From: Spizellomyces punctatus DAOM BR117
Taxonomy: Eukaryota
DNA: 64,000 nt
Assembly (NCBI GenBank): GCA_000182565.2
Contig: KQ257451.1
Strand: one strand, 5' to 3'
Shown: in pieces, positions 1,931-57,520 of the stretch
How positions within the stretch are numbered: the stretch's first letter is position 1
Layout: each line of letters starts with the position of its first letter
Notes under the pieces: model-generated
Database searches by the model: none
Told to the model about the DNA's origin: nothing
The model's input: the letters and a program-made list of their open reading frames with translations, nothing else
Made by a program: the position numbers and the translations under genes

Positions 1931-4920
1931 CTATCCTTTTGACTCTTGCTTTTTTGCGTCCTCATTTATATCAACGTCCTCCCAGTCATGTTCTTGAGAT
2001 TCACCTGTAGCAATGTCTGGGGTCGTTCGACCGGTTGATGGCGGGCTGACGCTCCAGTCCTTTCTTTTCTGGTTCAGGAAACTACTGACGTTGGCGAATA
2101 TTTGGGATGTTGTAGCTAATTGACAAAGTTAAACGAACTCAGGATGACTGTTTAATGGCCCTCCACCGTTACCTTGCAGTCGTTGCTGCTGAGCGGGATC
2201 TGTGACAGTGTCCATTGCTTTCGTGAGAGATGTTTCGACTGCCTTATTTATATTCTGCTGTATAGGCGATAGGTTTCTTCCAAGTTCAGAAAGTCGGGCA
2301 GCAAAAGACGTTTGAAGTATACCAAACGTTGATGCGCCTTGACAGGGATGAGCTGGGCTAATACTGGGAGAGGAGTTGGTACTTCTTAGGAGGCCATATA
2401 CAAAGGAAAATGAACGCAACGCACTTTGGATTGTCTGGCAGTTCTCCTCCTATTATTGCCAACCATTTCGTGTAATGAATCGTGGATTGCCATGCCTTCA
2501 CCCAGGCGGGATTGAAGTCTGCTAGGAAATCTTTTCCTAAAATGATGGACAATAAGCTCCCATTGCATTGTGGAAGGTCGATGAAGCACACCTCGTATCG
2601 CTGGGTCCACAGAGATTGCCGCAGTCTGAGCTGTCTTCACAGAAGCCAGCAAAGTAAGAAGGTACAGCTCAAACCTTGCTCGGATATCGTCGTCACTGCC
2701 CTCGAAGGACAATTGTTGATTCATGGACATGTCGTCTGAGAAAGACCATGGCATGAGCTACTCGCATGAAGGAATGGAGTGAATGAATCAAGTAAACCTT
2801 CTGGACTCCACGTTGCAACAACTGATTTCGTGATATCTGAAGATAGGTGTTTAGACATTGTTTGCATGTATGAAACAAGGTCAGGCATCAGCGCACCATC
2901 AATAAATTTCTTGTCTGGAGTAGTCAAGCTTATGAGGGGATTGAGAGCTGGATTCATGAGTTCTAAAGTACCGGTATCGACCTAAATCCCGCAGGATGTT
3001 AGCTAACGGCATGAAAGATCTCATGTACGAAACAGTGCAGGAACGTAGCCTACATTGGCAATGGCGTCGACTGCGCATCCTTTGTGGTGGAGGAAAATGG
3101 CATTACTGGTGCCCACCAAGTACGACTTTGTGTCGGAGGACATCAACACGTCCATTTGTTGCAAGGGGATATATGGTTGAAAGAAGGCCGACTGCATCAA
3201 GCATTGTTAGTAACCGGTTTCCCATGTATGACGGTCAACTGCTGCATACTTCTCCAAATATCGGTAATGGCATCCACTGCCGCAGTAGCCCTCCTTGCTG
3301 ATCTGAGGAGACCCCATACATCTTTTTCGTCGGGTCATCCTTCCCCTCCGGCCCTCGACCCAGTGACGGAGCTCCAGCATCCCGAAGCCCTCGCAGCAGT
3401 TCTACAGATTGATCAAAATTTGTATTCCAGGTGGCGACAGATATCGCATTCGGTCTTCACTGACCTGGTATCAAAGAAACCAAGCTGTATTGGTAAGCGG
3501 ACAGCCTCTCAACCTTGGAGCCAAAAAATAAAATCTGTGTCGAAGGCTCTGCGTCAGCACGATACGCCACGCTAGAACATCTATGTGCGTACCCTTTTTT
3601 CCAGAAATAATAATTTGAAGAGTTGAAGGGTTTTTTGCTTGAATTTATTCACTAACTCTCGCAAAGAGATGCCTAGAAAGTAAAACGCTTAAAACACGGC
3701 CGAACACGAAGGGAAGCATCCCCTTTATACCCATGTAAAGTGTGCTGTCGGGAATGTATCCTGAAACGGACACTGCCAAGCTGTTGTAGAGTGTCTATTT
3801 TTGAAAACGAAAAGGATGAGACAGCGCACCAGCTCGTGGTCGTTTCGCGGAAGCGGTTCAGACCTCTAATATTTCAAGCTTCGAAAAGTCCTTCTGCTCA
3901 AAGAATGCACGAGTCACTAAACCGAGCTTACTTCGGACCGATCCTAAGGTTTACATCAGCGAAAGCCAGGTGGGAGTGTTTAAAACGTGTACGGACCCAA
4001 AACGGGTTGGGTAGCGAGCACTACCACGGCTTTTTGCACTGTACTGCGAGTGACATCGACGGTTTTGTTGATGAGCTCCTGAAATGCCGGAACACAATGA
4101 GGTTCATGATGCAATTTCAACAGGAACGAATAGTACCCGCTTACACTTGCTGGCATCTGTCGGTAGCACGCCAGTCCAAACAATGTTGATTGCGGATAAC
4201 TTTTCCACTCTGGGACTGGAGGAAGATGAAAATCTAAAGGAATGGAGCGCAGTTGCGGTGGAATGAACATTGTATGTTTCATATGAAGAAAAGGGGCAAT
4301 ACTTACAAATGAACTCTTCGTCCGTTGCTGTAATAAGCCATAATCTGTAAGTAATACTGTCTGACAGATTGATCCTGAAATCCACTCGGACTCACCGTGG
4401 GCTCCATCAGGCAAGCAAAGAAAGGGCTTAGGATCAAAAACATTCTATCAATGGTCATGGAACATATGACCAAAACCCAACTCCAACATACGAGAAAGGA
4501 CCATTCCTCGGGCAAAGCTACAGAGGTATCCTCACGTAGCAGTTTATTATCCTCAGACGGGTTTGACCCTGGCAATGGTGGAAAGGGTGGAAAGGCAAAC
4601 TCCACTTGCGGACCATTTCTATCTCCGTCCTTAGGTCGGTAAGAGCTCTCGACCGACGATAAAGGCTTATCATGCCAATTTGAAACTTATACCTGTGATG
4701 AAAAGCAACGCAGAGTACTGCATTTGACAAGTAGCCTGGTTAAGGGAAGCTTCGAAGACTTCTGAACAACTACTCGGGGCACACTACCATGCAAGATTAT
4801 ACGCGACTTTTGAGGTTGGGGTTCAGTAGATGATGCGGATTCTTGGCTCAAACTTGCATCGCCGTCCTTTGGTGCTTCCTCGTCTATGGTTGCATTTTCA
4901 GATTTGGTTTCAGGCTCCAT
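1931..4920 (-). CDS. AVL9: AVL9 (DENN-like) late secretory pathway protein, multi-exon
   Basis: AFHH...GPQVEFAFPP, LPEEWSFL, LPDGAH, TLFGLACYRQ, VTRSTVQKAVVVLA, FEGSDDDIRARFELYLL, DFNPAWVKAWQST, HPCQG motifs. Confidence 0.9.
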
Positions 4921-5128
4921 AATGGGCCGTAAAATGTAAAGGATCGTCGAGCGCAAACGTTGGAGCAAACGCTGCTTCAGTCAGCGCTGCCCTCAGTTGA
5001 TCACGTGACAAGCCATTCGGTTACCGATCAACTCGAGCGTTCCAAGCGTACCAAAGGTACCAGACGTTACGCGCTTGATTTGTTGGGCAACCGCCAACGG
5101 CTGAAGGCTTTACTAGCGATCAACTCCG

Positions 5129-6392
5129 ATGGCAGACTTTATAGGTGCGTTCGTTAGACTTTGTGATATGGTGTTCAAGGTGGTAGATTACTGTATAGAT
5201 GCACGGCTGATCTTTCTGCTTTTTTTGTAGACGAACTACTTGTGTTGCGAAACAGTTTTTACCTGGGCTCGTGGCAGCAGGTCATTGACGAGGCCTCGGA
5301 TCCTTCGAAAGCCCCACGGACAGATGAAGCAAAGCTTCAACAGCGCGTGCTATTATATCGTGCATGCGTAGCTCAAGGCAAGCCGGAACGTGCCATTGCC
5401 GAGATTCGCGATAACGATGCACCCGAACTTCGAGGGGTCAAATGTCTTGCACGCTATGTTAAAGCCGCATCTTCCCAAAACACGTCCGAAAAAAGCAAGG
5501 CTGTGCAGGATATTACCACACTGGCTGCAGAGGGCACAAATGGGCTCAGCAGTACTGTACAAGTTCTGGTTGGGTCTGTCCTGTACGCTGAAGAGCGTTA
5601 TCCTGAGGCATTAAAAGCCGCGGTACAAAGTCCCCGAAACTTGGAATGGTAAGAAGCCTGTGGCTGGCGCGAATATGGCAAGATCCTCTTTCTCATCCAA
5701 TGTCCCCCAGTGTCGCACTCGCTATTCAAACATATCTTAAAATGGACCGCCCCGAACTTGCCCGCAAAGAAGTCGAGAAATTGAAGACCTGGGCCGATGA
5801 TGCCACATTGGCGCAACTAGCTGAAGCCTGGGTTAACTGTTACATCGTAAGCCGGCATCCACGTTCAAATCTTGATATGCCTTTACCTGAGATTGCCAAA
5901 CAAAACAGGGAGGAGACGAAAAGATACAAGAATCTCAATACATCTTTGAGGAACTGGCTTCATCGAAGCTTAGCACCGGTCGACTGGTTGCTGGACATGC
6001 TATCTGCAAGATGCAGGCTGGAAATTTTGCAGAAGCAGAACGACTACTACTAGAAGCTCTCAGCAGAGTAAGGCATGGTTTTCGGTCGCTGCGAACGGGG
6101 CAGCCCTGTCCGTAAACTGGTAACTGAAAACAAACTACGTTGCAGTACGCAAGCGACCCCGATGTTATAGCTAATCTGATTGTATGCGCAACTGCCACTG
6201 GGAAATCTGCGGAAATTCTCTCCCGATACACAAGGTACAAGCAGTATTGTACTGTTGTGTTTCATCGCGTCCATCTAATCGTGAACTACACTCTGCAGTC
6301 AACTTAGACAAGTCGCTCCGCAGCATCCCTTGCTGCAAGATCTCGTCCTCAAAGAATCGCTTTTTGATCGGGCTGTCCAACGATATGTATGA
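5129..6392 (+). CDS. COPE: Coatomer subunit epsilon, multi-exon
   Basis: DELLVLRNSFYLGSWQQVI, LKMDRPELARKE, DDATLAQLAEAWV, HPLLQDLVLKESLFDRAVQRYV*. Confidence 0.92.
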
Positions 6393-14789: not shown

Positions 14790-14880
14790 TGTGTAGGCTG
14801 TTTCTAGTGTAGAGGTGACAGAAACTGGCACTAGCTACTACACCAGGGAATAAACCGGCGACAACCGGTTCGGAAAAGCC
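14790..14880 (-). ncRNA. Putative Fanzor omegaRNA, copy 1 (scaffold ~14805-14880 plus ~15-nt flank-derived guide GAAACAGCCUACACA)
   Basis: Minus strand GGCTTTTCCGAACCGGTTGTCGCCGGTTTATTCCCTGGTGTAGTAGCTAGTGCCAGTTTCTGTCACCTCTACACTA; stems AACCGG/CCGGTT and TGGTGTAG/CTACACTA; 74/76 identical to copy 2; resembles the SpuFz1 omegaRNA as recalled. Ends are inferred. Confidence 0.8.
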
Positions 14881-15518
14881 AACTAAGCTACTACTAGGCA
14901 ATTATACACGCAATACGTAACGGTTGTTTCTAACCGGATAATTGCCCACCACCACACGCGGTCCCTACTAGGCCTTGATCTGGAACTCTTGATGGCATTG
15001 AAGGCATCCAGGAGTGAATCGACTGGGCAGCATCACAAGCTGGGGGATTTTCAGTGACAAGGCTTGGAGACTAAAAACTGCATGTCAGTAACAGAATAAC
15101 ATGAAAAGAGATGATGCCATTGGTACATACCAACCAAGCTCAACTAATGTGGCAGTATAATAGCAGCTTTGTTGGTTCCGAGTGATTGTTGCTGGTTCCA
15201 GTTGGTTGTAGTCATCGGCAGGGCAAGGTGCAATGTGGGTCGTGATGAGTGTTGCGCAGATGGTTTGAGAGTTGAGGAACTGGTGAGGAAGGGAAGAGAC
15301 AGGAAAGGCCCCCCTTTTATAGACCTTGAGTGTGGCAAATGGGGTCCAGCTGAAAAAAAAAAAAAAAAAAAAACATTACATTAGCATGCCACACCGCAGT
15401 TTGGAGAACATTAGCAGGACGTCTTTCAGCGATGGGGGTTCTGATTATGCAATATAATTAACCGGATTGATCCGGATGATAATGGGTACTAGTGCCATTT
15501 ACTGTCAGCTCCACACTA
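14805..15518 (-). mobile_element. Non-autonomous TIR element, Fanzor 'ghost' copy 1
   Basis: 30-bp TIRs 14805-14834 and 15489-15518 (26/30 match, both ending in TA); homologous to 55745-56435; minus-strand 5' flank reads CATA (15517-15520); no long ORF. Confidence 0.88.
15314..15321 (-). promoter_or_regulatory. TATA box (TATAAAAG) inside ghost element 1, followed by a CT-rich tract
   Basis: AAGGTCTATAAAAGGGGGGCCTT is conserved in both copies; the same TATAAAAG core lies upstream of GAPDH. Confidence 0.6.
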
Positions 15519-15691
15519 TGTACTGCAAACAGCGTTTCAAATTACGCGTCATTAGTCATTTGAATTTCTGGAACGTTTGGTTCTTGGTAACAATTGCAAG
15601 GGAAGATCCAAAGAGCTTTTGTTCGTTTTCAAGACTTGCCACGGATCTTGCTCCTGGGGTCGGAAATCTCAACGACGGTTGCAAAAGAGAG

Positions 15692-40232: not shown

Positions 40233-41662
40233 TCACTCCTCCTTCCCCTTCTCCTTCTCTACAAACCCAAGGGAAATCCTCGCGATCTCTCCTTCTTCGT
40301 CTGTTGCAACAACAAAGACCTTGACTGGACTTTCCTCTTTCGAAATCTCCACCACTTTATTATCGTTCAATGAGCACTTTTCGTTCTTGCTTTCGTCTAG
40401 ATGGACGCTGATGCATGTGAGATTTTGGCAGACTTTTGCCCGCACCAGGGATGAGTTTTCCCCTATTCCGCCTGTGAAGATGATCCCGTGGGCCGGGTTT
40501 AAGGCAATGTGATATGCGCCGATATATTTCTGGATTCGGTACTGAAACGAGTCAAAATTGGTAAGTTTATGCATTCTTGTGAGGTGATAAGAAACCGGAG
40601 GGCACAACCCACACAAAACATATCGAAAGCCAGCTCGGCTCTCCGTTTCTTCTCCCCCTCCCCGTTCCGCATCAAGTCGATAATCTTTCTGATGTCATTT
40701 TCGCCACAAACGCCTCTCAACCCACTCTCATGGTTGAGCACATCTTCCACTTTGGAGATCTTGGGACCGGCTGGAGCGGATTTTATCGCAGGTACTTTGT
40801 CCAGCGAGAACCCCGGCTGGGAGATGTGAAAAGGAGCGGAGGGGTCAATGTCCCCACTCCGTGTACCCATCATGAGTCCCTCCAGAGGCGTGTATCCCAT
40901 AGATGTATCAACGGAAACTCCATTCTTGATGGCGCATGCGCTACACCCGTTGCCCAGGTGGAGAGAAATAAGGTTTATACCCGGATGACGACCCAATACC
41001 AGATGAGAAACGTAATTATGTGACGTTCCATGGAAGCCATACTTTCTCAACCCGCTCTCGTTGCATGCATCAAAAGGAAGCGGGTACCGCCATACCTTTT
41101 CTTCAAGGGTCGAGTGGAACGACGTATCAAACACCCCAACCTGCTTTGAGTCAGGAAAGAGTTTAAGCGTTGTTTTGATGAGTACGACGCTGGGGTGGTT
41201 GTGGAGAGGTGCAAGAGCAGAGAGAGAGTCAAGCGTTGAGATCGAGGAGGCTGTGATGAGAGTCGGTTGAGTGAAATCCTGGCCCCCATGAACGATGCGG
41301 TGTCCAACCGCTAGAACATCAGTCAAGAGTTTTTCATCATTGTCTTGTAACACTTGTATCATTTTTCTGAATACGGATTCATGATCCGTTCCGTCAGTCG
41401 CTTCGTCAGTGAGCGTCCTGGATGTGGTCTTTGCATCGTTGTCTTTGAGAATCTGGATTTGGATGGGTGAATTTGGGGCCCCGAGGGACGAGGCCGCGCC
41501 TTTTACGAGGATGGTCAAGTTTGACGCGGATGTGAGGTTGTAGAGACGGAATTTGATGGTGGAGCTGGACACAGGCTTAATATGTTTTGGAACTACCAGA
41601 ATATGGTGGCAGAAGAGGACAGTGTCTCACCTTCCAGCGTTCACAACGAGAATGCGAGGCAT
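40233..41662 (-). CDS. ackA: Acetate kinase, 3 exons
   Basis: MPRILVVNAGS/STIKF, GHRIVHGG, APLHN, VFDTSFH, YGFHGTSH, HLGNGCS, MGTRSGD, IFTGGIGENS, TDEEGEIA. Confidence 0.95.
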
Positions 41663-44194: not shown

Positions 44195-47100
44195 CTATAG
44201 TACCAAAAGTCGGACCTTGGCAGTCTCATCCATCCCTACATATCCATCACTAACAATAAGCAAGGTCAATTCGACCTCCCCAGGTTCATCAGGTGTGATA
44301 AATCTCAGTCCAGTAGACATCTTATCCGATCGATCGCCCGTCGCAGCAACACGTTTAATGGCAACTACTTCGTCTTCAACAGCATCGCCAAGAACCACCC
44401 ACCAGCCTTCATATTGTGGTTTGGGAAACTTTGGAGCATATACTCGGTGTTGGTTGTTCATTCCGCGAGACGGCCGTGATCGTGTCAGTTCGACTCGAAG
44501 TTCATATTGTTGTCCACGTTGCACACCCCATAATCCCGGCAACTTCTCAACCGCATTTTCCACTCTAGATTTGACGCTCAATAATGGCAAGTTTCGGGTG
44601 ATGCGTTTAATCTCTCCGATGTGGGCGGGGGCAAGGCCCACCCCGGCAAATGCTTCCTCCATATCCTGATCACTCAACCGTGCAACGTGCTTTAAATGAG
44701 TCACCACGTCCCCCCTCACTTTGAGCATTGATGCCATTTCATTCGTTACTCTCGGCAAAATTACCAACTCTGATCGTGTGGGCCACCATGCCTGCTTGAT
44801 ACACTGCATCAAGTGCATGACACCCAAACAGGTAGACAGGTACCCATCCTCGGCAGCGACATCCACCATGGCCTGCATGATACGGATTGATTGATCCAAT
44901 ACCGACGTCGTATCAGTAGCGAAATCAGCGCACGGCAATGTTCCCAAGCGGGTAAGATGGGCTTGGAGAAGCAAAAAAGCTTTCGCATGCGGGTCATCAT
45001 AATCGTAGATCTTGCCTTCGTTCAAGGGTCCAATACCAAAGGAACTGCCTTGTTCGTTCAAGTTGACCGGAACAGGTAACAGTCTTTCGAGATCCTGATT
45101 CATCTTGTCCTCATTGTGCCGTACAGGGAGCTCATCATACTCTGCTACGTCACACAAGATCCTCAGCATCTTCGGAAAATCTCCCTCAGCGGCTCTAGCG
45201 GCGGACGGTGCACGGTAATGGGGTCCAAGGCGTTGCGTCAGTGTTCGGATGGTGGTATGGTGGAGATAATAGTACGACGCAATCTTTCCATACACAGTAG
45301 GGTGCACATAAAAGTCACCGTCAATCTCGATACACGCCGAGTCGACAAGAGCCTGCAGGGAATTTTCGATCAACGTGGACATGTAAATATTGATACCCTC
45401 TGGAGAAGCTTCTTGGACTCCATAGAACGTTGGGTTCTGTCAAAAAACTCAGTTAGCTCCACAACCATAGGCTTCTCCAAACGTAGCTACTCACCATCTG
45501 CAATCTCCGATAAAGGTACGTCCATGTCAAATAATCCATCGCATCCTGTTTGCTTGTCACCGTCCCCCCGACAATCTCAGCACACATATGATCATGTAGA
45601 CATGTATGTAAACTGCTCTCAACAGGGAAGGGTTCGTGCAAAAACTTTTTGTAAAAGTTTTTCTTGATGTCATGTACAAAAATCCGTGCAACACCAGAAT
45701 CATCAAACTGGGGACGTCCAGCTCGCCCCATCATTTGCAGGACATCAGTAATCTGGAAATCGACGTATCCCTTCACCTTGGCATCGTAAAACTCTGTTCC
45801 CTTGATGACGACGAGATGCGCGGGATAATTAACTCCCCACGCGAGCGTACTTGTAGCGATGAGAATCTGGATCTTGCCATTCACAAAGAGCTCTTCAGAG
45901 ATTTTTCGGTCACTTTCTATCAAACCGGCGTGATGCAGACCGATCCCAAATCCAAGGGCAAGCTTGAGGGACTGGTCTTTGACCTGCGAGACCAAGATTT
46001 CCAAGTCTTCTTCGGGCATATGCAGGAAGCGTTTGGGGTTTTCGTCCAAACCGCATAGCGCAATCAAGTCTTGGGCAGTAAGCCGAGTTTGTCGCCGCGA
46101 AGATACGAAAACTATTACCGGTTTCCTAGGGGAATGCGTCAGTATGGCCGTATAGGTTGGTTTGTTCATCGACATCATTCGCGGACAGTCTGAAAATGGT
46201 CGAACAGAAATGGTCAGTCTCTGGACCACGTCGTCACTCAATACCAGTCGCCAACTCACAATGCTTGCCGGCGAATCCATCAATGTAAATCTCCAGAGGG
46301 ACGGGCCGTACTGAATGCCTAAAGTTGAACAATCCAACATGCGTAATTCCAAGCCAATCCGCTAAATCATTTGCGTTCGCAAGCGCCGTGCTCAGTCCTA
46401 CAATCCGAATCTTTTTTCCTGTTTGTGCAGAGATATAATTCATTCTGGAGACAATAACTTCCAAAATCGGGCCTCGATCTCCTCCTAGAAGGTGAATCTC
46501 GTCGATGATCACCAGTGAGACGTTTGTGACATATTTACGCGTTTGCCAGCTTCGACTGATTCCATCCCATTTTTCGGGAGTTGTAATGATGATATCTGCC
46601 TTTTGGATCGTACGCAGATCGGGAGTTACGTCCCCAGTCAACTCCACGAGCTCTCGGTTCATAGGGAATGTCAGTCGAGATCGCCAATCTTGGACTCGCT
46701 CGCGAACCAATGCTTTCAATGGAGCGATATAGACCACCTTCGACTTGGGGTGATCCCTGAAGGCCGCCCACATCGCCAATTCGGCCGCAACAGTTTTTCC
46801 GGAGCCCGTTGGTGCGCCCACGAGAACGTTATGCTCACTTCGGTACAACGTATGGAAGATCTGGGTCTGCACAGGATTGAAGTATTCAAACCTCTGCCTG
46901 CAGATATCCTCCAGAATTGGGTTGTCTAGTGCTGATACAGGGAGTGGCTGCAAATCTAACAAATCCGTGTGAGGTGCTCTATTCAGGGTGGGAAGAATTA
47001 GATGCTTAAACGACACGGGGATGATAATGTCGGACCCAATCCATTTATCTGAAACCGCACGGATGAAAATCTGGGGTGGGAGCTCGTCAACGGTTGAAGA

Positions 47101-50100
47101 CGTTGTTGGGATCGGAATCGTGAACCCCAGTTTCTGCTCCTCGTCTTGTGCCCGTTTATGCAGCAGAAAGTATTCACTATACAGAATCTCCGTATTCTCT
47201 GAATCTTCCACCCAAATCCACCAGGGCTCAACCGATCCATGCACCCGGTCATTCCAGATAAAATCCGGTGTAATCGTTAAAGTCACTCTTAACACCTTCC
47301 GAGTAATCGGCGCGATCGTTGCATCCAGAATCAAGGACGGAAATTGTTGGGCACACCTAATGACCGTATAGGCCATCTTTTGATGTCGAATCAGCTGCCC
47401 TACTTCTCTCACATCCATATGCCGCACATCCTCAATGGTCAACTGTCTTGGAGCTCTCTCCAATTTCTGTACAATCTCTGGTGCGAGATCAAATTGTCCC
47501 AAAGGATGCTCGAATGACCACATGCGTTTATCCACCGCCTTGCAGAGTGATAGTATAACTGAGGAAGCTGGGCCCCAGTTTCGATTCAAAGCAATCTGGA
47601 ACAATGCTCTCAAGATACGGGCGGCGTTTTGTGCCACATAGGCCGTGTCAGAGACCAGAGCAAAATCCTCGATATGAGCGCGAGAAATGTAGCTTTGCAG
47701 AAGAATATTGGTCTTGCCGTAATTGGTGTCAACGCCGCCCTAAATTGAAGAGATTTTAGATGCCTCCGATTTGACGATTGACAATGCCGCAAGCGTACCT
47801 TAACAGCACAAACACAATCATTCTCCTCCAGATCTTTTATTTCTTGCACCTCCTCCTCCCGAACCTTAACATTCTCAAATTCCGTGCTCATACTGAGCAT
47901 ACTCAATACATCCGCTTCTGTCATCCTTGGCCGCATCATCTCGTTGAAGATCTCCACACTTGCGGTCTGAATGTAAAAGCTACTTGCGGTCCTTCCCAAA
48001 TCTTTTGGGTTGAGGTAACCCCTTTCTGCGTCAAAGGTGATCATTTGGGCTTTGGCCAAAGTCTTTGCTGCTGCGATAATCAATTCCCGTCGACGTTTGG
48101 CCAAGGTTGGGTCATCTTGAATATCGTTCCAGTTTAATCCATACTGGAAGGGGTTCTTCTTCATTCGCGCGTACAGGTATGTGTAGGATAACCACCTGAC
48201 TCCTTCGTCGAGAGATGTTACTGTTCCAAGAGAAATTTCGGCGTTCAGATTATCCGTGAGGTGCTCTGCAAATCGAGACTCGATGGGATGCTGCTGCGTC
48301 ATTGCGGAGACGTAATGGCTCAGCTTATCATGTGATGTCAGAATGTAACCGACACCACGATCTTCGTACTGGGGTCTACTCGAATTTCGGCAATCACATT
48401 ATATCAATCTGAAAATACATGCATGGAACGACGGCCATAACGTACCGTCCAGCACGACCGAAAATCTGGAGCACATCCAAAATGGAAAGGTCCATAAAGC
48501 CACCTTTCTGTGCATTGTACACTTGCGTTCCCTTGATGACCACTGCATACGCAGGGAGGTTGACACCTAAACAGATTCACGTTGTCAAAACTGAGTAAAG
48601 AGGAAGCCAACAAGTTCTCTTGCGACACTAACCCCACGCAAGCGTCGCCGTACAACACAAGACCTAACACATGATTTAGTCAAATTTTGATGGGTTATGG
48701 GATATACGCAGAACTGAGACATACCCTGAGTAAACCCTTCTCAAATAGACGTTCCGTCAAGGTCCGATCGGACCGCAGCATCCCGGCATTATGTATACCG
48801 AAGCCGGAGGCAAAAAGTTCCCTCAATTCTTTATTCTTTGACCTTTGCACTTCCTTGACAGCCAGACCATACTGCGGATCCTGCGTCATATCAAACAGCC
48901 CTGCCACCGCAAAAAGTAAGTATCGAAGCGTCCTTCACTCGCAGGAGTACCCACCAAGCTCATTATGATTAAGCGCCTCATCTCGAAGCATTTGCGCCGT
49001 CCGAACAGTGTCTTTTCTCGAATGAACAAAAACCATCACTTGTGCCCCATCACGGACGAGTTCGGATACTTTATCATAGCAAACATCATTCATCTTCTTC
49101 TGCATGATAGTTGATCCGGCTTTCGCCTTGATGCCGATGAAGTGTTGTTCCAATGGGACAGGGCGGAAAGAGGAGTCGAAGAAGAATAGGCCTTGATATT
49201 TGTTTACGCTATATTTGTGACAAATATTAAAGACAGAAAGGAGAGCCTGTGATTCAGAATCACCCGTACCCAAGGAAGGCGGCCACATCGAGGTAGTTTG
49301 GTAATGTGGCTGACAGTCCGATAATGCGGATCATCGACTGGCTTGACTCCACCTTTTGATATCATTGTTACGACGCACTCCCTATCTGTGTGTGCCATTG
49401 CTATCAGAAATACCTGTCGTAACGTCCTCGCCACAATACTTTCAATAACAGCGCCTCGGTCTTCATGGAGAAGATGGACTTCATCTATGATTAACAGGCG
49501 AACCTTCTGCTCCGGAGATCATTGAACACGAAGCATCTCCAATCATAACGGCGTCGACAGACCTGCGCCAATTCAGTATCCCCAACACTTTTTCGTGTCA
49601 CGACATCCCACTTTTCAGGAGTAGTCACAATCATTTGGGTAGCTGCAATCTCCGCTTTCGTCAACTGCATATCGCCTGTATACCCAAAAAGATGACGTTC
49701 AGTATATCTCCAGAACAAAAGGCGCGCGCCTGACTGACCAGTAAGCTCTCTAACAGAAATACCCAATCCCCCATCCTGTTCACGCCCGCCCAATCTAGCT
49801 GAAAACTTTCGTACAACCTCTGCAGCGAGAGCTTTCATTGGTGCCACATATACGATTTTGAAATCATTCTTTGCCAACCGCCCGTCATGGCGATGTTGCG
49901 ACAAGGTCCGCATGACTGTAAGCATCGCGATATCCGTCTTCCCCTGATGGAGAGCATGGCGTCAGACAGGTGAACATGATTGCTAGTGAACATATATCGC
50001 CCAGCATACCGCTCCGGTTGGCGCGCACACCAGCATATTCTCATTCGTCCCATAAGCAATAGGGAATACAATGGACTGTACTCGGTTTAGCGACGTGTAG

Positions 50101-54294: not shown

Positions 54295-55726
<1,432 letters not shown>

Positions 55727-55729
55727 TCT

Positions 55730-55820
55730 GATGTTACATGTATTTAGTGTAGAGGTGACAGAAACTGGCACTAGCTACTACACCAGGGAATAAACCAGCG
55801 ACAACTGGTTCGGAAAAGCC
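55730..55820 (-). ncRNA. Putative Fanzor omegaRNA, copy 2 (scaffold ~55745-55820 plus guide AAUACAUGUAACAUC)
   Basis: Same scaffold as copy 1 apart from the compensatory pair AACCAG/CTGGTT. Ends are inferred. Confidence 0.8.
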
Positions 55821-56435
55821 GAGTAATTCCCTCCTTACAACCAACCAACTACCACTAGGCCCAATTACACATGCAATACATTACGGTTGTTTCTAACCGG
55901 GTAACTAAGCCCACCACACGAGAGAAATCCTACTAAGCCCTTGATTCCGAAATTCTTTAGTCAGAGGATGTTCAGATACTAATTAAACCAGAATTAGACT
56001 CGGAATACACATGGGAAAATACAAAGATAATGCATACCTGCAATCATTGCAATATAGTAGTAGCAGCGTTTGCAAGGGGTTATGTTGTTTTTGTCGGGAG
56101 GGCAAGGTCCTCAACACCAGAGCGGCATTCTCATGATGGACTTGAGAGTGTTGCTTGAACGTTGCGCAGATGCTTTGAGTCGAGGATGGGTAAAGAGGAA
56201 AGAGGGAAGAGACAGTGAAGGCCCCCCTTTTATAGACCTTCCGCATGCACCTCACCGCAGTTTAAAAAAAGAAAAAAATACGTTAGCATGCCACACTGCA
56301 GTTTGGAGTTTGGAGAACATTAGCATGCCACACCAATCTGAGCGATAGATGGGGGTTCTGATTATGCGATATGATTAACTGGATTGATCCGGATAATAAT
56401 GGGTCCTAGTGCCATTTTCAATCACCTACACACTA
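55745..56435 (-). mobile_element. Non-autonomous TIR element, Fanzor 'ghost' copy 2
   Basis: 30-bp TIRs 55745-55774 and 56406-56435 (25/30, ending in TA); termini, TATA region and A-tract colinear with copy 1; minus-strand 5' flank reads TATA. Confidence 0.88.
56227..56234 (-). promoter_or_regulatory. TATA box inside ghost element 2
   Basis: AAGGTCTATAAAAGGGGGGCCTT, identical to copy 1. Confidence 0.6.
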
Positions 56436-56549
56436 TATATTGAACCCTCCGCATATTGTGTTTTGAACCAGACAGCTACAGGCACTGTAATAAACGTTAC
56501 TTCTCACTTTTCCTCTGGCCGCAGCCACCTCCTCTGGGTTCAAAAGCAA

Positions 56550-57520
56550 CTATGAGATTGTACCAGACAAGATTGCCTCCACCGCCTGTCCTTCATCGCC
56601 TTCAAATTGTCGTAAGGCTTTAACAACCAATCCTCGCTCAAACCCCATTTCACATACTCTTGAGATTGACCCTTGGTCCAGCCCCACCTCGTCTACGCCC
56701 ACCGTTTTCCCAATCTGATCGACGGAAGAACCCCCAATAGCATGTATCTGGGTCCATTCCCTTGCAGTCTTCTCAAAGTCCGCTCGTGCCGACAGGTAGT
56801 GTTTCGCAACCTCCGCGTCCTACAACATCTATTTAGAATACGCCTTTCTTGAAGTAATAGGACTGACAAAAGGATAATCCACGCACCTGCGGATTGTCCG
56901 GTGCTGGATCGCAAAGCAGCGACTGCAGGGATATTAGCTGATCACAGCACCTTTCAGTGTTACAAGCCACAGGCACAGAATCACAAACCATGCATCTCCA
57001 AACATACCACAGTTTTCAAGGTCAGGACAGGACTCCATTCATCTTTCAAAATGTCCAAGCCTATTCACCAGCCGCCACGCGATAAGCGACCATCCCAATC
57101 ATGCTGGGAGAAAGTTGGTTTGATGAGACTCACATATAGCGCCTGTTTGCGAAGAGATGTTTGGATGGTAGACTGGTGTCTCAAATCTCATTTTTGGGGG
57201 CTAGTTCACATGAGCATTGTCAACAATCTCCATTCCAGGCGAACGGCCAAACTACGGCGCGGCACACCTTGAAAGGATAGTCGTCTGGTAACTCTATGTC
57301 CACAAGAAACTGTCCACCTTCGTATGGGCTACCCTGCGGCCCTGCAATCATTCCTTTAAGGCGACCTAGCGTCGGCGATTCAGCTGCGTATAGTGGGATG
57401 ATTGGGTGTATCCTGTGTGGTCTTACATAGATTGTCTCCGACAACTTGCACATATACATTGGCAGTTTTGTCCGACTGCACTTGACGGATTTCCCTCTCT
57501 ATTCGTCGTGCGTCTGGCAT
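56550..57520 (-). CDS. UBC1: Ubiquitin-conjugating enzyme E2 with C-terminal UBA
   Basis: [70 protein letters not shown]. Confidence 0.92.

Follow-up and report, generated by a model that had tools for sequence, protein, structure and literature searches.

[quoted passage not shown] According to a later description, the genome of Spizellomyces punctatus DAOM BR117 holds 134 ghost Spu-1 loci, which have inverted repeats (IRs) and no Fanzor (Fz) ORF, together with 42 full or partial Fz loci (PMC10432273). The ghosts are reported there to have 30-nt IRs that differ from those of the Fz loci at seven positions, a CA conserved upstream of the 5' IR, a conserved region of ~550 nt separating the IRs, and a 75-nt 3' region that resembles the Fz omega-RNA, with a 3-nt bulge replacing an 8-nt loop in stem 2 (PMC10432273). 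Ghost omega-RNAs of 75 nt, taken from four loci, supported SpuFz1 activity in human cells, acting with a CATA TAM, any base mutation of which abolishes cleavage, and a guide of 14-15 nt; small RNAs had been detected natively from four of the Fz loci, and the same text reports no transposase flanked by Spu-1 IRs (PMC10432273). In Fanzor1 systems, the guide-RNA scaffold is reported to take in the TIR and the target-site duplication (TSD) (Yoon et al. 2023, PMC10711439). A collection of 126 unique ghost scaffolds (gst1-126) of 74-76 nt has since been collated and representatives tested, and a compact editor guide, gst28.m2, has been engineered from ghost scaffolds of the S. punctatus genome (2026, PMC13434818). 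Earlier publications already cover this class of element, the number of its copies, its scaffold, and the idea of a guide repertoire, and as a discovery the element described here adds little. The additions made here are a compensatory scaffold pair, a conserved poly(dA:dT) tract and TATA box, ghost contigs in an RNA-derived sequencing run, and a TATA at the TAM position of one copy.

The window, the whole stretch of DNA analyzed here, is 64 kb long and contains an acetate kinase ORF (40499-41626, minus strand) whose product matches the S. punctatus DAOM BR117 protein at NCBI with 100% identity, the next matches being at 57-58%. Beyond a few chytrids (50-58%), the nearest listed relatives of this acetate kinase are bacterial or metagenomic, at ~40-50% identity. 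The preliminary description placed a Fanzor ghost at 55745-56435 (copy 2) as the second copy in the window, with the same orientation and architecture as the first (copy 1); the coordinates are exact, and all of the parts are found in both copies. We identify this feature with high confidence as a ghost Spu-1 element of S. punctatus, non-autonomous, ORF-less, and related to the SPu-1 Fanzor1 transposon, and hold its identity and anatomy, taken together, with only slightly less assurance. The identification made in the preliminary description is borne out by the S. punctatus DAOM BR117 origin of the DNA, by the published ghost features, and by the 3' end, which agrees with the canonical omega-RNA at 15 of 18 named nucleotides.

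Counted from TA to TA, copy 2 is 691 bp long, with a 687-bp element (55747-56433) inside. Copy 1 occupies 14805-15518 on the minus strand, both TAs counted, as located by repeat families, BLAST, and the IR pattern, and consists of a TA (14805-14806), a 710-bp element (14807-15516), and a second TA (15517-15518). The two copies lie 41 kb apart and are oriented alike, as seen from the direct-repeat families D1 to D4. Read along the minus strand, copy 2 begins with the TA target-site duplication on its 5' side (56434-56435), recognized by flank comparison, followed by the 30-nt 5' (left-end) IR (56404-56433), recognized by IR match and pattern search, and an adjoining subterminal conserved region (56348-56403; family D1). 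A poly(dA:dT) tract (56264-56278; family D3), which is a T-run on the minus strand, lies 5' of a TATA box, TATAAAAG (56227-56234), that sits in an invariant block and is oriented toward the scaffold end (HSP 56161-56240, 82%); it may serve as a promoter. It is followed by a diverged middle (55918-56160) without significant similarity to copy 1 or coding signal, and by a conserved, branched hairpin region 5' of the scaffold (55849-55917; HSP of 84%), which is the "second hairpin" of the preliminary description. The ghost omega-RNA scaffold, defined by its predicted fold and by the comparison of 18 named nucleotides, comprises the last 74 nt (55745-55818), in which a linker separates stem-loop 1 from stem 2. 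The latter is built from the 30-nt 3' (right-end) IR (55747-55776), which is the same in both copies in the copy alignment, and the last 2 nt of the scaffold are the TA of the duplication. The flank straight after this TA provides a putative 15-nt guide (55730-55744, minus strand), its length being taken from the published description (PMC10432273). Alignment to copy 2 places the copy 1 scaffold at 14805-14878, its TATA box at 15314-15321, and its 5' IR at 15487-15516, all on the minus strand, and flank comparison places its CA at 15519-15520 and its putative guide at 14790-14804; the A-tract and the hairpin region are likewise present in copy 1. The two IRs match each other at 24 of 30 positions in copy 1 and at 23 of 30 in copy 2, and TA stands on both sides of both copies.

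A degenerate pattern built on the IRs matches only these four ends in the 64-kb window, compared with 0.01 matches expected from 100 shuffles. None of the 24 listed ORFs of the element exceeds 94 aa, the 6 of these that were scanned have no Pfam match below an E value of 0.1, and the longest minus-strand ORF of the element has no PDB match. No TnpB, Fanzor, or transposase occurs among the 10 large window ORFs that were scanned, and no Rfam family reaches its gathering score in the window. The element shares with the published ghosts the genome, the IRs of ~30 nt, the absence of an Fz ORF, a flank that would serve as the guide, and a scaffold of 74-76 nt that is predicted to form two stems and a linker, stem 2 being interrupted by a 3-nt bulge. 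It differs from them in that copy 2 has TA in place of CA and in that the interiors between the IRs measure 627 nt (copy 2) and 650 nt (copy 1) rather than ~550 nt; compared by the published description and by the 18 named nucleotides, nothing essential differs. Relative to the SPu-1 Fanzor1 transposon and the SpuFz1 omega-RNA (PDB 8GKH as cited), the shared features are the TA duplication, the TIRs, and an omega-RNA built from the 3' IR. SPu-1 is described as having a Fanzor ORF of 633-638 aa within ~2.1 kb, whereas the present element is ORF-less and ~0.7 kb long. A metagenome scan with the degenerate IR pattern gave no matches. The nine metagenome loci returned by a stem-loop 1 pattern were rejected as chance matches, with blastn finding only 18- to 34-nt matches and no extended similarity.

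The canonical SpuFz1 omega-RNA was compared by way of the 18 nucleotides named in the cryo-EM text of PMC10432273 (U5, C6, C7, U16-G20, G22, A29, C32, C34, U35, G37, C40, G70, A72, and A75), which serve as a proxy for a direct alignment. The ghost scaffold was anchored at U5-C6-C7 and taken as 1 nt shorter between positions 22 and 29, an offset that was picked post hoc, after inspection of the sequence, and that is consistent with the published lengths of 74-76 nt. By this scheme, 15 of the 18 named nucleotides are matched in both copies. When the same scheme was applied to 127,848 offsets on both strands, a score of 15 occurred at these two sites only, the next-best scores being 14 (one site) and 13 (five sites). 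The mismatches are G22 and the C40-G70 pair, which is a predicted U-A pair here; C40 and G70 are the named ends of the distal stem 2 segment of the canonical RNA (PMC10432273). The matches at A72 and A75 depend on taking the TA of the duplication as the last two nucleotides of the scaffold, in agreement with the report on Fanzor1 (PMC10711439). Read indirectly, through the omega-RNA match, the ghost IRs appear to be homologous to those of the Fz loci. A 20-nt string of the scaffold was not found in a full-text literature search, and short scaffold motifs have zero occurrences in the text of PMC13434818.

The preliminary description had contrasted a nearly constant RNA end, identical at 74 of 76 positions, with a heavily diverged interior, and BLAST between the copies confirms both. 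The RNA end (55745-55820 versus 14805-14880) is identical at 74 of 76 positions, and the opposite end (56348-56435, a span that includes the IR and the TA) is identical at 78 of 88. Four HSPs join the copies, at copy 1 positions 1-76 (97.4%), 84-148 (84%), 447-523 (82%), and 556-714 (80%), and positions 149-446 have no HSP with copy 2 at word size 7 and E values of up to 1. In this comparison of two copies, the HSPs account for 377 nt of copy 1 (714 nt in all), or about half. The scaffold, with 2 differences in 76 nt, has changed less than the remaining alignable stretches, which have 10 in 88 (Fisher P = 0.038), 11 in 69 (P = 0.007), and 15 in 83 (P = 0.0016). Divergence along the element is not uniform between the two copies; an even spread would have told against the preliminary description.

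In both copies, the 90-nt RNA is predicted to fold into two stems separated by a linker, the 5' arm of stem 2 carrying a 3-nt bulge, with modest z-scores of -2.6 and -4.2, compared with -0.9 and -1.2 for the upstream region. The sole two substitutions in the 76 nt of the scaffold form a compensatory change from A-U to G-C in stem-loop 1, and in a simulation the chance that two random substitutions both hit one predicted pair and preserve it is ~0.004. RNAalifold, applied to the last ~190 nt of both copies, predicts 45 pairs, 2 of which show compensatory double changes, and no predicted pair of the local hairpins is broken between the copies. The second compensatory pair, a change from U-A to C-G, lies in a small hairpin upstream of the scaffold (alignment columns 47 and 55). 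When the sequences are folded singly, both arms of the long stem upstream of the scaffold (55849-55917 versus 14888-14952 in copy 1) have a 2-nt insertion in copy 2. The inserted nucleotides form G-U pairs on the minus-strand RNA, and the plus strand would have C-A mismatches in their place. They are a strand-specific hint of RNA structure beyond the published 75-nt scaffold. The covariation and the stem insertions are both drawn from two sequences and are taken as hints rather than as proof.

Copy 2 sits between convergent genes, 18 nt past the stop codon of a WD40 gene (55724-55726) and 114 nt past the stop codon (56550-56552) of an E2-UBA gene on the opposite strand, and its putative guide falls inside the 18 nt that separate the WD40 stop codon from the element. 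In copy 1, the RNA end (TA, 14805-14806) is followed after 21 nt, on the same strand, by the ATG (14783-14781) of a ubiquitin-like gene, which has a match to Pfam ubiquitin (E = 2.5e-12); transcription from the copy 1 TATA box would enter the 5' end of this gene. The WD40 gene has an intron at 55475-55549, at which contig 11 of the public run X4 is spliced, and this contig extends 26 nt into the element (to 55772). Since the spliced contig reaches into the element, the 3' untranslated region of the WD40 gene overlaps the putative guide and the end of the scaffold in antisense.

The flanks differ between the copies, and therefore the 15 nt after the TA also differ (55730-55744 versus 14790-14804, reverse complement), as the preliminary description expected in stating that different flanking DNA gives each copy a different guide. 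Searched against the window, each guide finds its own site and two matches with three mismatches, 1.7 matches of any kind being expected from shuffles. On the opposite side, reading the 5' end of the minus strand, copy 1 begins CA-TA-IR, which gives the published CATA TAM, whereas copy 2 begins TA-TA-IR, with TA (56436-56437, minus strand) where CA is conserved 5' of the 5' IR, which gives TATA. The preliminary description expected CATA to be enriched at the 5' flanks; of the two copies, copy 1 alone carries it. The CA, treated here as a target-site preference displayed in a sequence logo, belongs to the site of insertion rather than to the element, and its absence does not exclude copy 2 from the family; it does matter for function, and the empty site of copy 2, with its TATA, could probably not be cut. 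Elsewhere in the window, the direct repeat D5 (45781-45824 and 48512-48555, 73% over 44 nt) lies in a large minus-strand helicase gene with DEAD, Helicase_C, and two Sec63 domains, and looks like an ordinary internal cassette duplication. The domain make-up of this helicase is reminiscent of Brr2.

Public sequencing runs were examined as contigs that are unstranded and without end information, with a depth summed over all family copies; such summed depth cannot rank the parts of a gene and is used here as a hint only. Run X1 reads through the WD40 intron, with flank depths of 3 and 2.4, and so behaves as genomic DNA. Its summed depth is 602 in the 3' IR bin, 450-487 in the 5' IR bins, 179-240 in the TATA region, and 48-137 in the middle. 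The preliminary description took two copies in 64 kb as a sign of a high copy number, which accords with the published count of 134 ghost and 42 Fz loci (PMC10432273) and with the depth of the element ends in X1, a rough proxy, at ~150-200 times that of the flanks; this depth also agrees with the better-conserved ends. Run X4, labeled "DNA?", is RNA-derived, as the fit of its 1,079-nt contig 11 to the window begins only at 55548, at the acceptor AG (55548-55549) of the intron whose GT is at 55475-55476.

Contigs of X4 cover 28 of the 30 bins, with 56279-56319 uncovered; missing cover is given no weight in any of the runs. Their summed depth reaches 156,361 in the 3' IR bin, stands at 18,000-97,000 in the bins of 55787-56155 except for 55992-56032 (304), and is 3,400-5,800 at 56156-56237, 529 just upstream of the TATA box, and 216-453 in the 5' IR bins; the flanking mRNA contigs have depths of 41 and 98. 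Ghost-family sequence is present in this RNA-derived run, and the profile hints at abundant RNA of the family, extending from the TATA side as far as the 3' IR. The contrast of X4 with the symmetric, DNA-like X1 is the more robust part of this hint. No contig of the public runs shows a scaffold-plus-guide RNA specific to the copy 2 locus; the X4 junction contig at the scaffold/guide border is continuous with the WD40 mRNA contig. Two runs with other organism codes, X12 and X13, cover 6 and 7 of the 30 bins, respectively. Within 55743-56142, each holds one near-identical ghost piece with 2-8 differences. One of these pieces has a different flank; in the other, 59 nt are missing (55979-56037), as they are in a variant found in X4.

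Published work on this family suggests a mechanism. A ghost would be transcribed from its own TATA promoter toward the 3' IR, the transcript would reach ~15 nt into the flank, and the 3' part with the flank would be loaded in trans into SpuFz1 encoded at the full-length loci. The resulting RNP would cut CATA plus the guide, which is the element's own empty site (CA, TA, and flank) after excision; the occupied site would be spared because the four bases before the flank read ACTA there. With its own empty insertion site as the target, selfish retention or homing would be likelier than defense, as for TnpB. Copy 1, with CATA, fits this scheme and copy 2, with TATA, does not, and we hold the retention mechanism tentatively, with confidence somewhat short of even. 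The IS200/IS605 TnpB omega-RNA (reRNA) is likewise a guide RNA made of the transposon right end plus the flank, and with its TAM at the left flank, TAM and guide together spell the empty donor site. Unlike the single-strand HUH transposon of TnpB, the ghost is a eukaryotic TIR element with the TA duplication inside its scaffold. It further differs from TnpB in that its RNA is described as having no pseudoknot (PMC10432273) and in that nuclease and guide are encoded at separate loci.

A more far-reaching possibility, to which we give limited credence, is that the ghosts are self-contained transcription units, in which the poly(dA:dT) tract and the TATA box would drive an abundant, structured precursor of ~450 nt with the omega-RNA and guide at its 3' end, and that they supply most of the SpuFz1 guides. 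Depending on the insertion site, they might also feed transcription into host genes or antisense to them (copy 1 near an ATG, copy 2 in a 3' untranslated region). The published texts consulted on ghosts yielded no statement of a ghost promoter or of a native ghost RNA, and "TATA" has zero occurrences in the main text of PMC10432273.

Chance resemblance or an assembly artifact can be regarded as refuted. The IR pattern has 4 matches against 0.01 expected, the scaffold ends are 97% identical over 76 nt, and the junctions between flank and element occur with 0 mismatches in independent runs (records 1 and 8 of X1 and records 11 and 18 of X4). A more serious rival is that the element is a ghost by descent that is inert at its locus, an ordinary TA-inserting MITE whose RNA end has no cellular role and whose ends would be conserved through the binding of a trans-acting transposase, recent spread, or gene conversion. 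Stowaway-like (Tc1/mariner-type) MITEs are short, non-coding elements with TIRs, a TA duplication, many copies, and insertions near genes. The present element shares all of these features, in addition to which, unlike such MITEs, it has a guide-RNA scaffold and an internal, promoter-like TATA block; no cognate DDE transposase is known for the ghosts. The TA duplication and imperfect TIRs are typical of cut-and-paste MITEs, and in the DNA-like X1 both ends are deep (602 and 487, versus 3 and 2.4 in the flanks). In addition, the TAM position of copy 2 is TATA, when a TAM mutation abolishes cleavage (PMC10432273), and no locus-specific guide RNA was seen in the public-run contigs. Set against inertness, however, the RNA end has 2 differences in 76 nt and the other end 10 in 88 (P = 0.038), both RNA-end differences form one compensatory pair, and the other such pair is found upstream of the IR, where a transposase site would be unlikely. 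Ghost-family sequence in the RNA-derived X4 also speaks against it, as do the reports that ghost scaffolds of S. punctatus guide SpuFz1 in human cells (PMC10432273, PMC13434818). We consider an inert element unlikely, although not negligibly so.

The preliminary description went on to propose that the dispersed ghosts form a CRISPR-like guide repertoire, which would direct Fanzor at transposons, viruses, or host genes. Many copies, each with its own flank-derived guide, would suit such a repertoire, and Saito et al. raised the same possibility, as speculation, in their Discussion (PMC10432273). CRISPR arrays resemble the ghosts in having a constant RNA scaffold, a variable guide, and a nuclease related to Cas12; unlike them, the ghosts are dispersed copies with one guide per element, set by the insertion site and matching self. 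Each guide is the element's own insertion flank, with nothing acquired from an invader, and away from its own site neither guide matches the window more often than chance predicts. Neither an array nor acquisition machinery is seen, 41 kb separate the copies, and the combination of a 15-nt guide and a 4-nt TAM, matching nothing but the empty site, suggests self-retention. The proposal finds no support in these data, the guides being local flanks without spacer acquisition or extra window matches, and we regard a repertoire of this kind as very improbable.

With CATA at the TAM position of copy 1 and TATA at that of copy 2, the two copies form a natural contrast that bears on what ghosts do in their native host. 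The conserved promoter-like block and the upstream RNA structure are candidates for the native source of ghost omega-RNAs.
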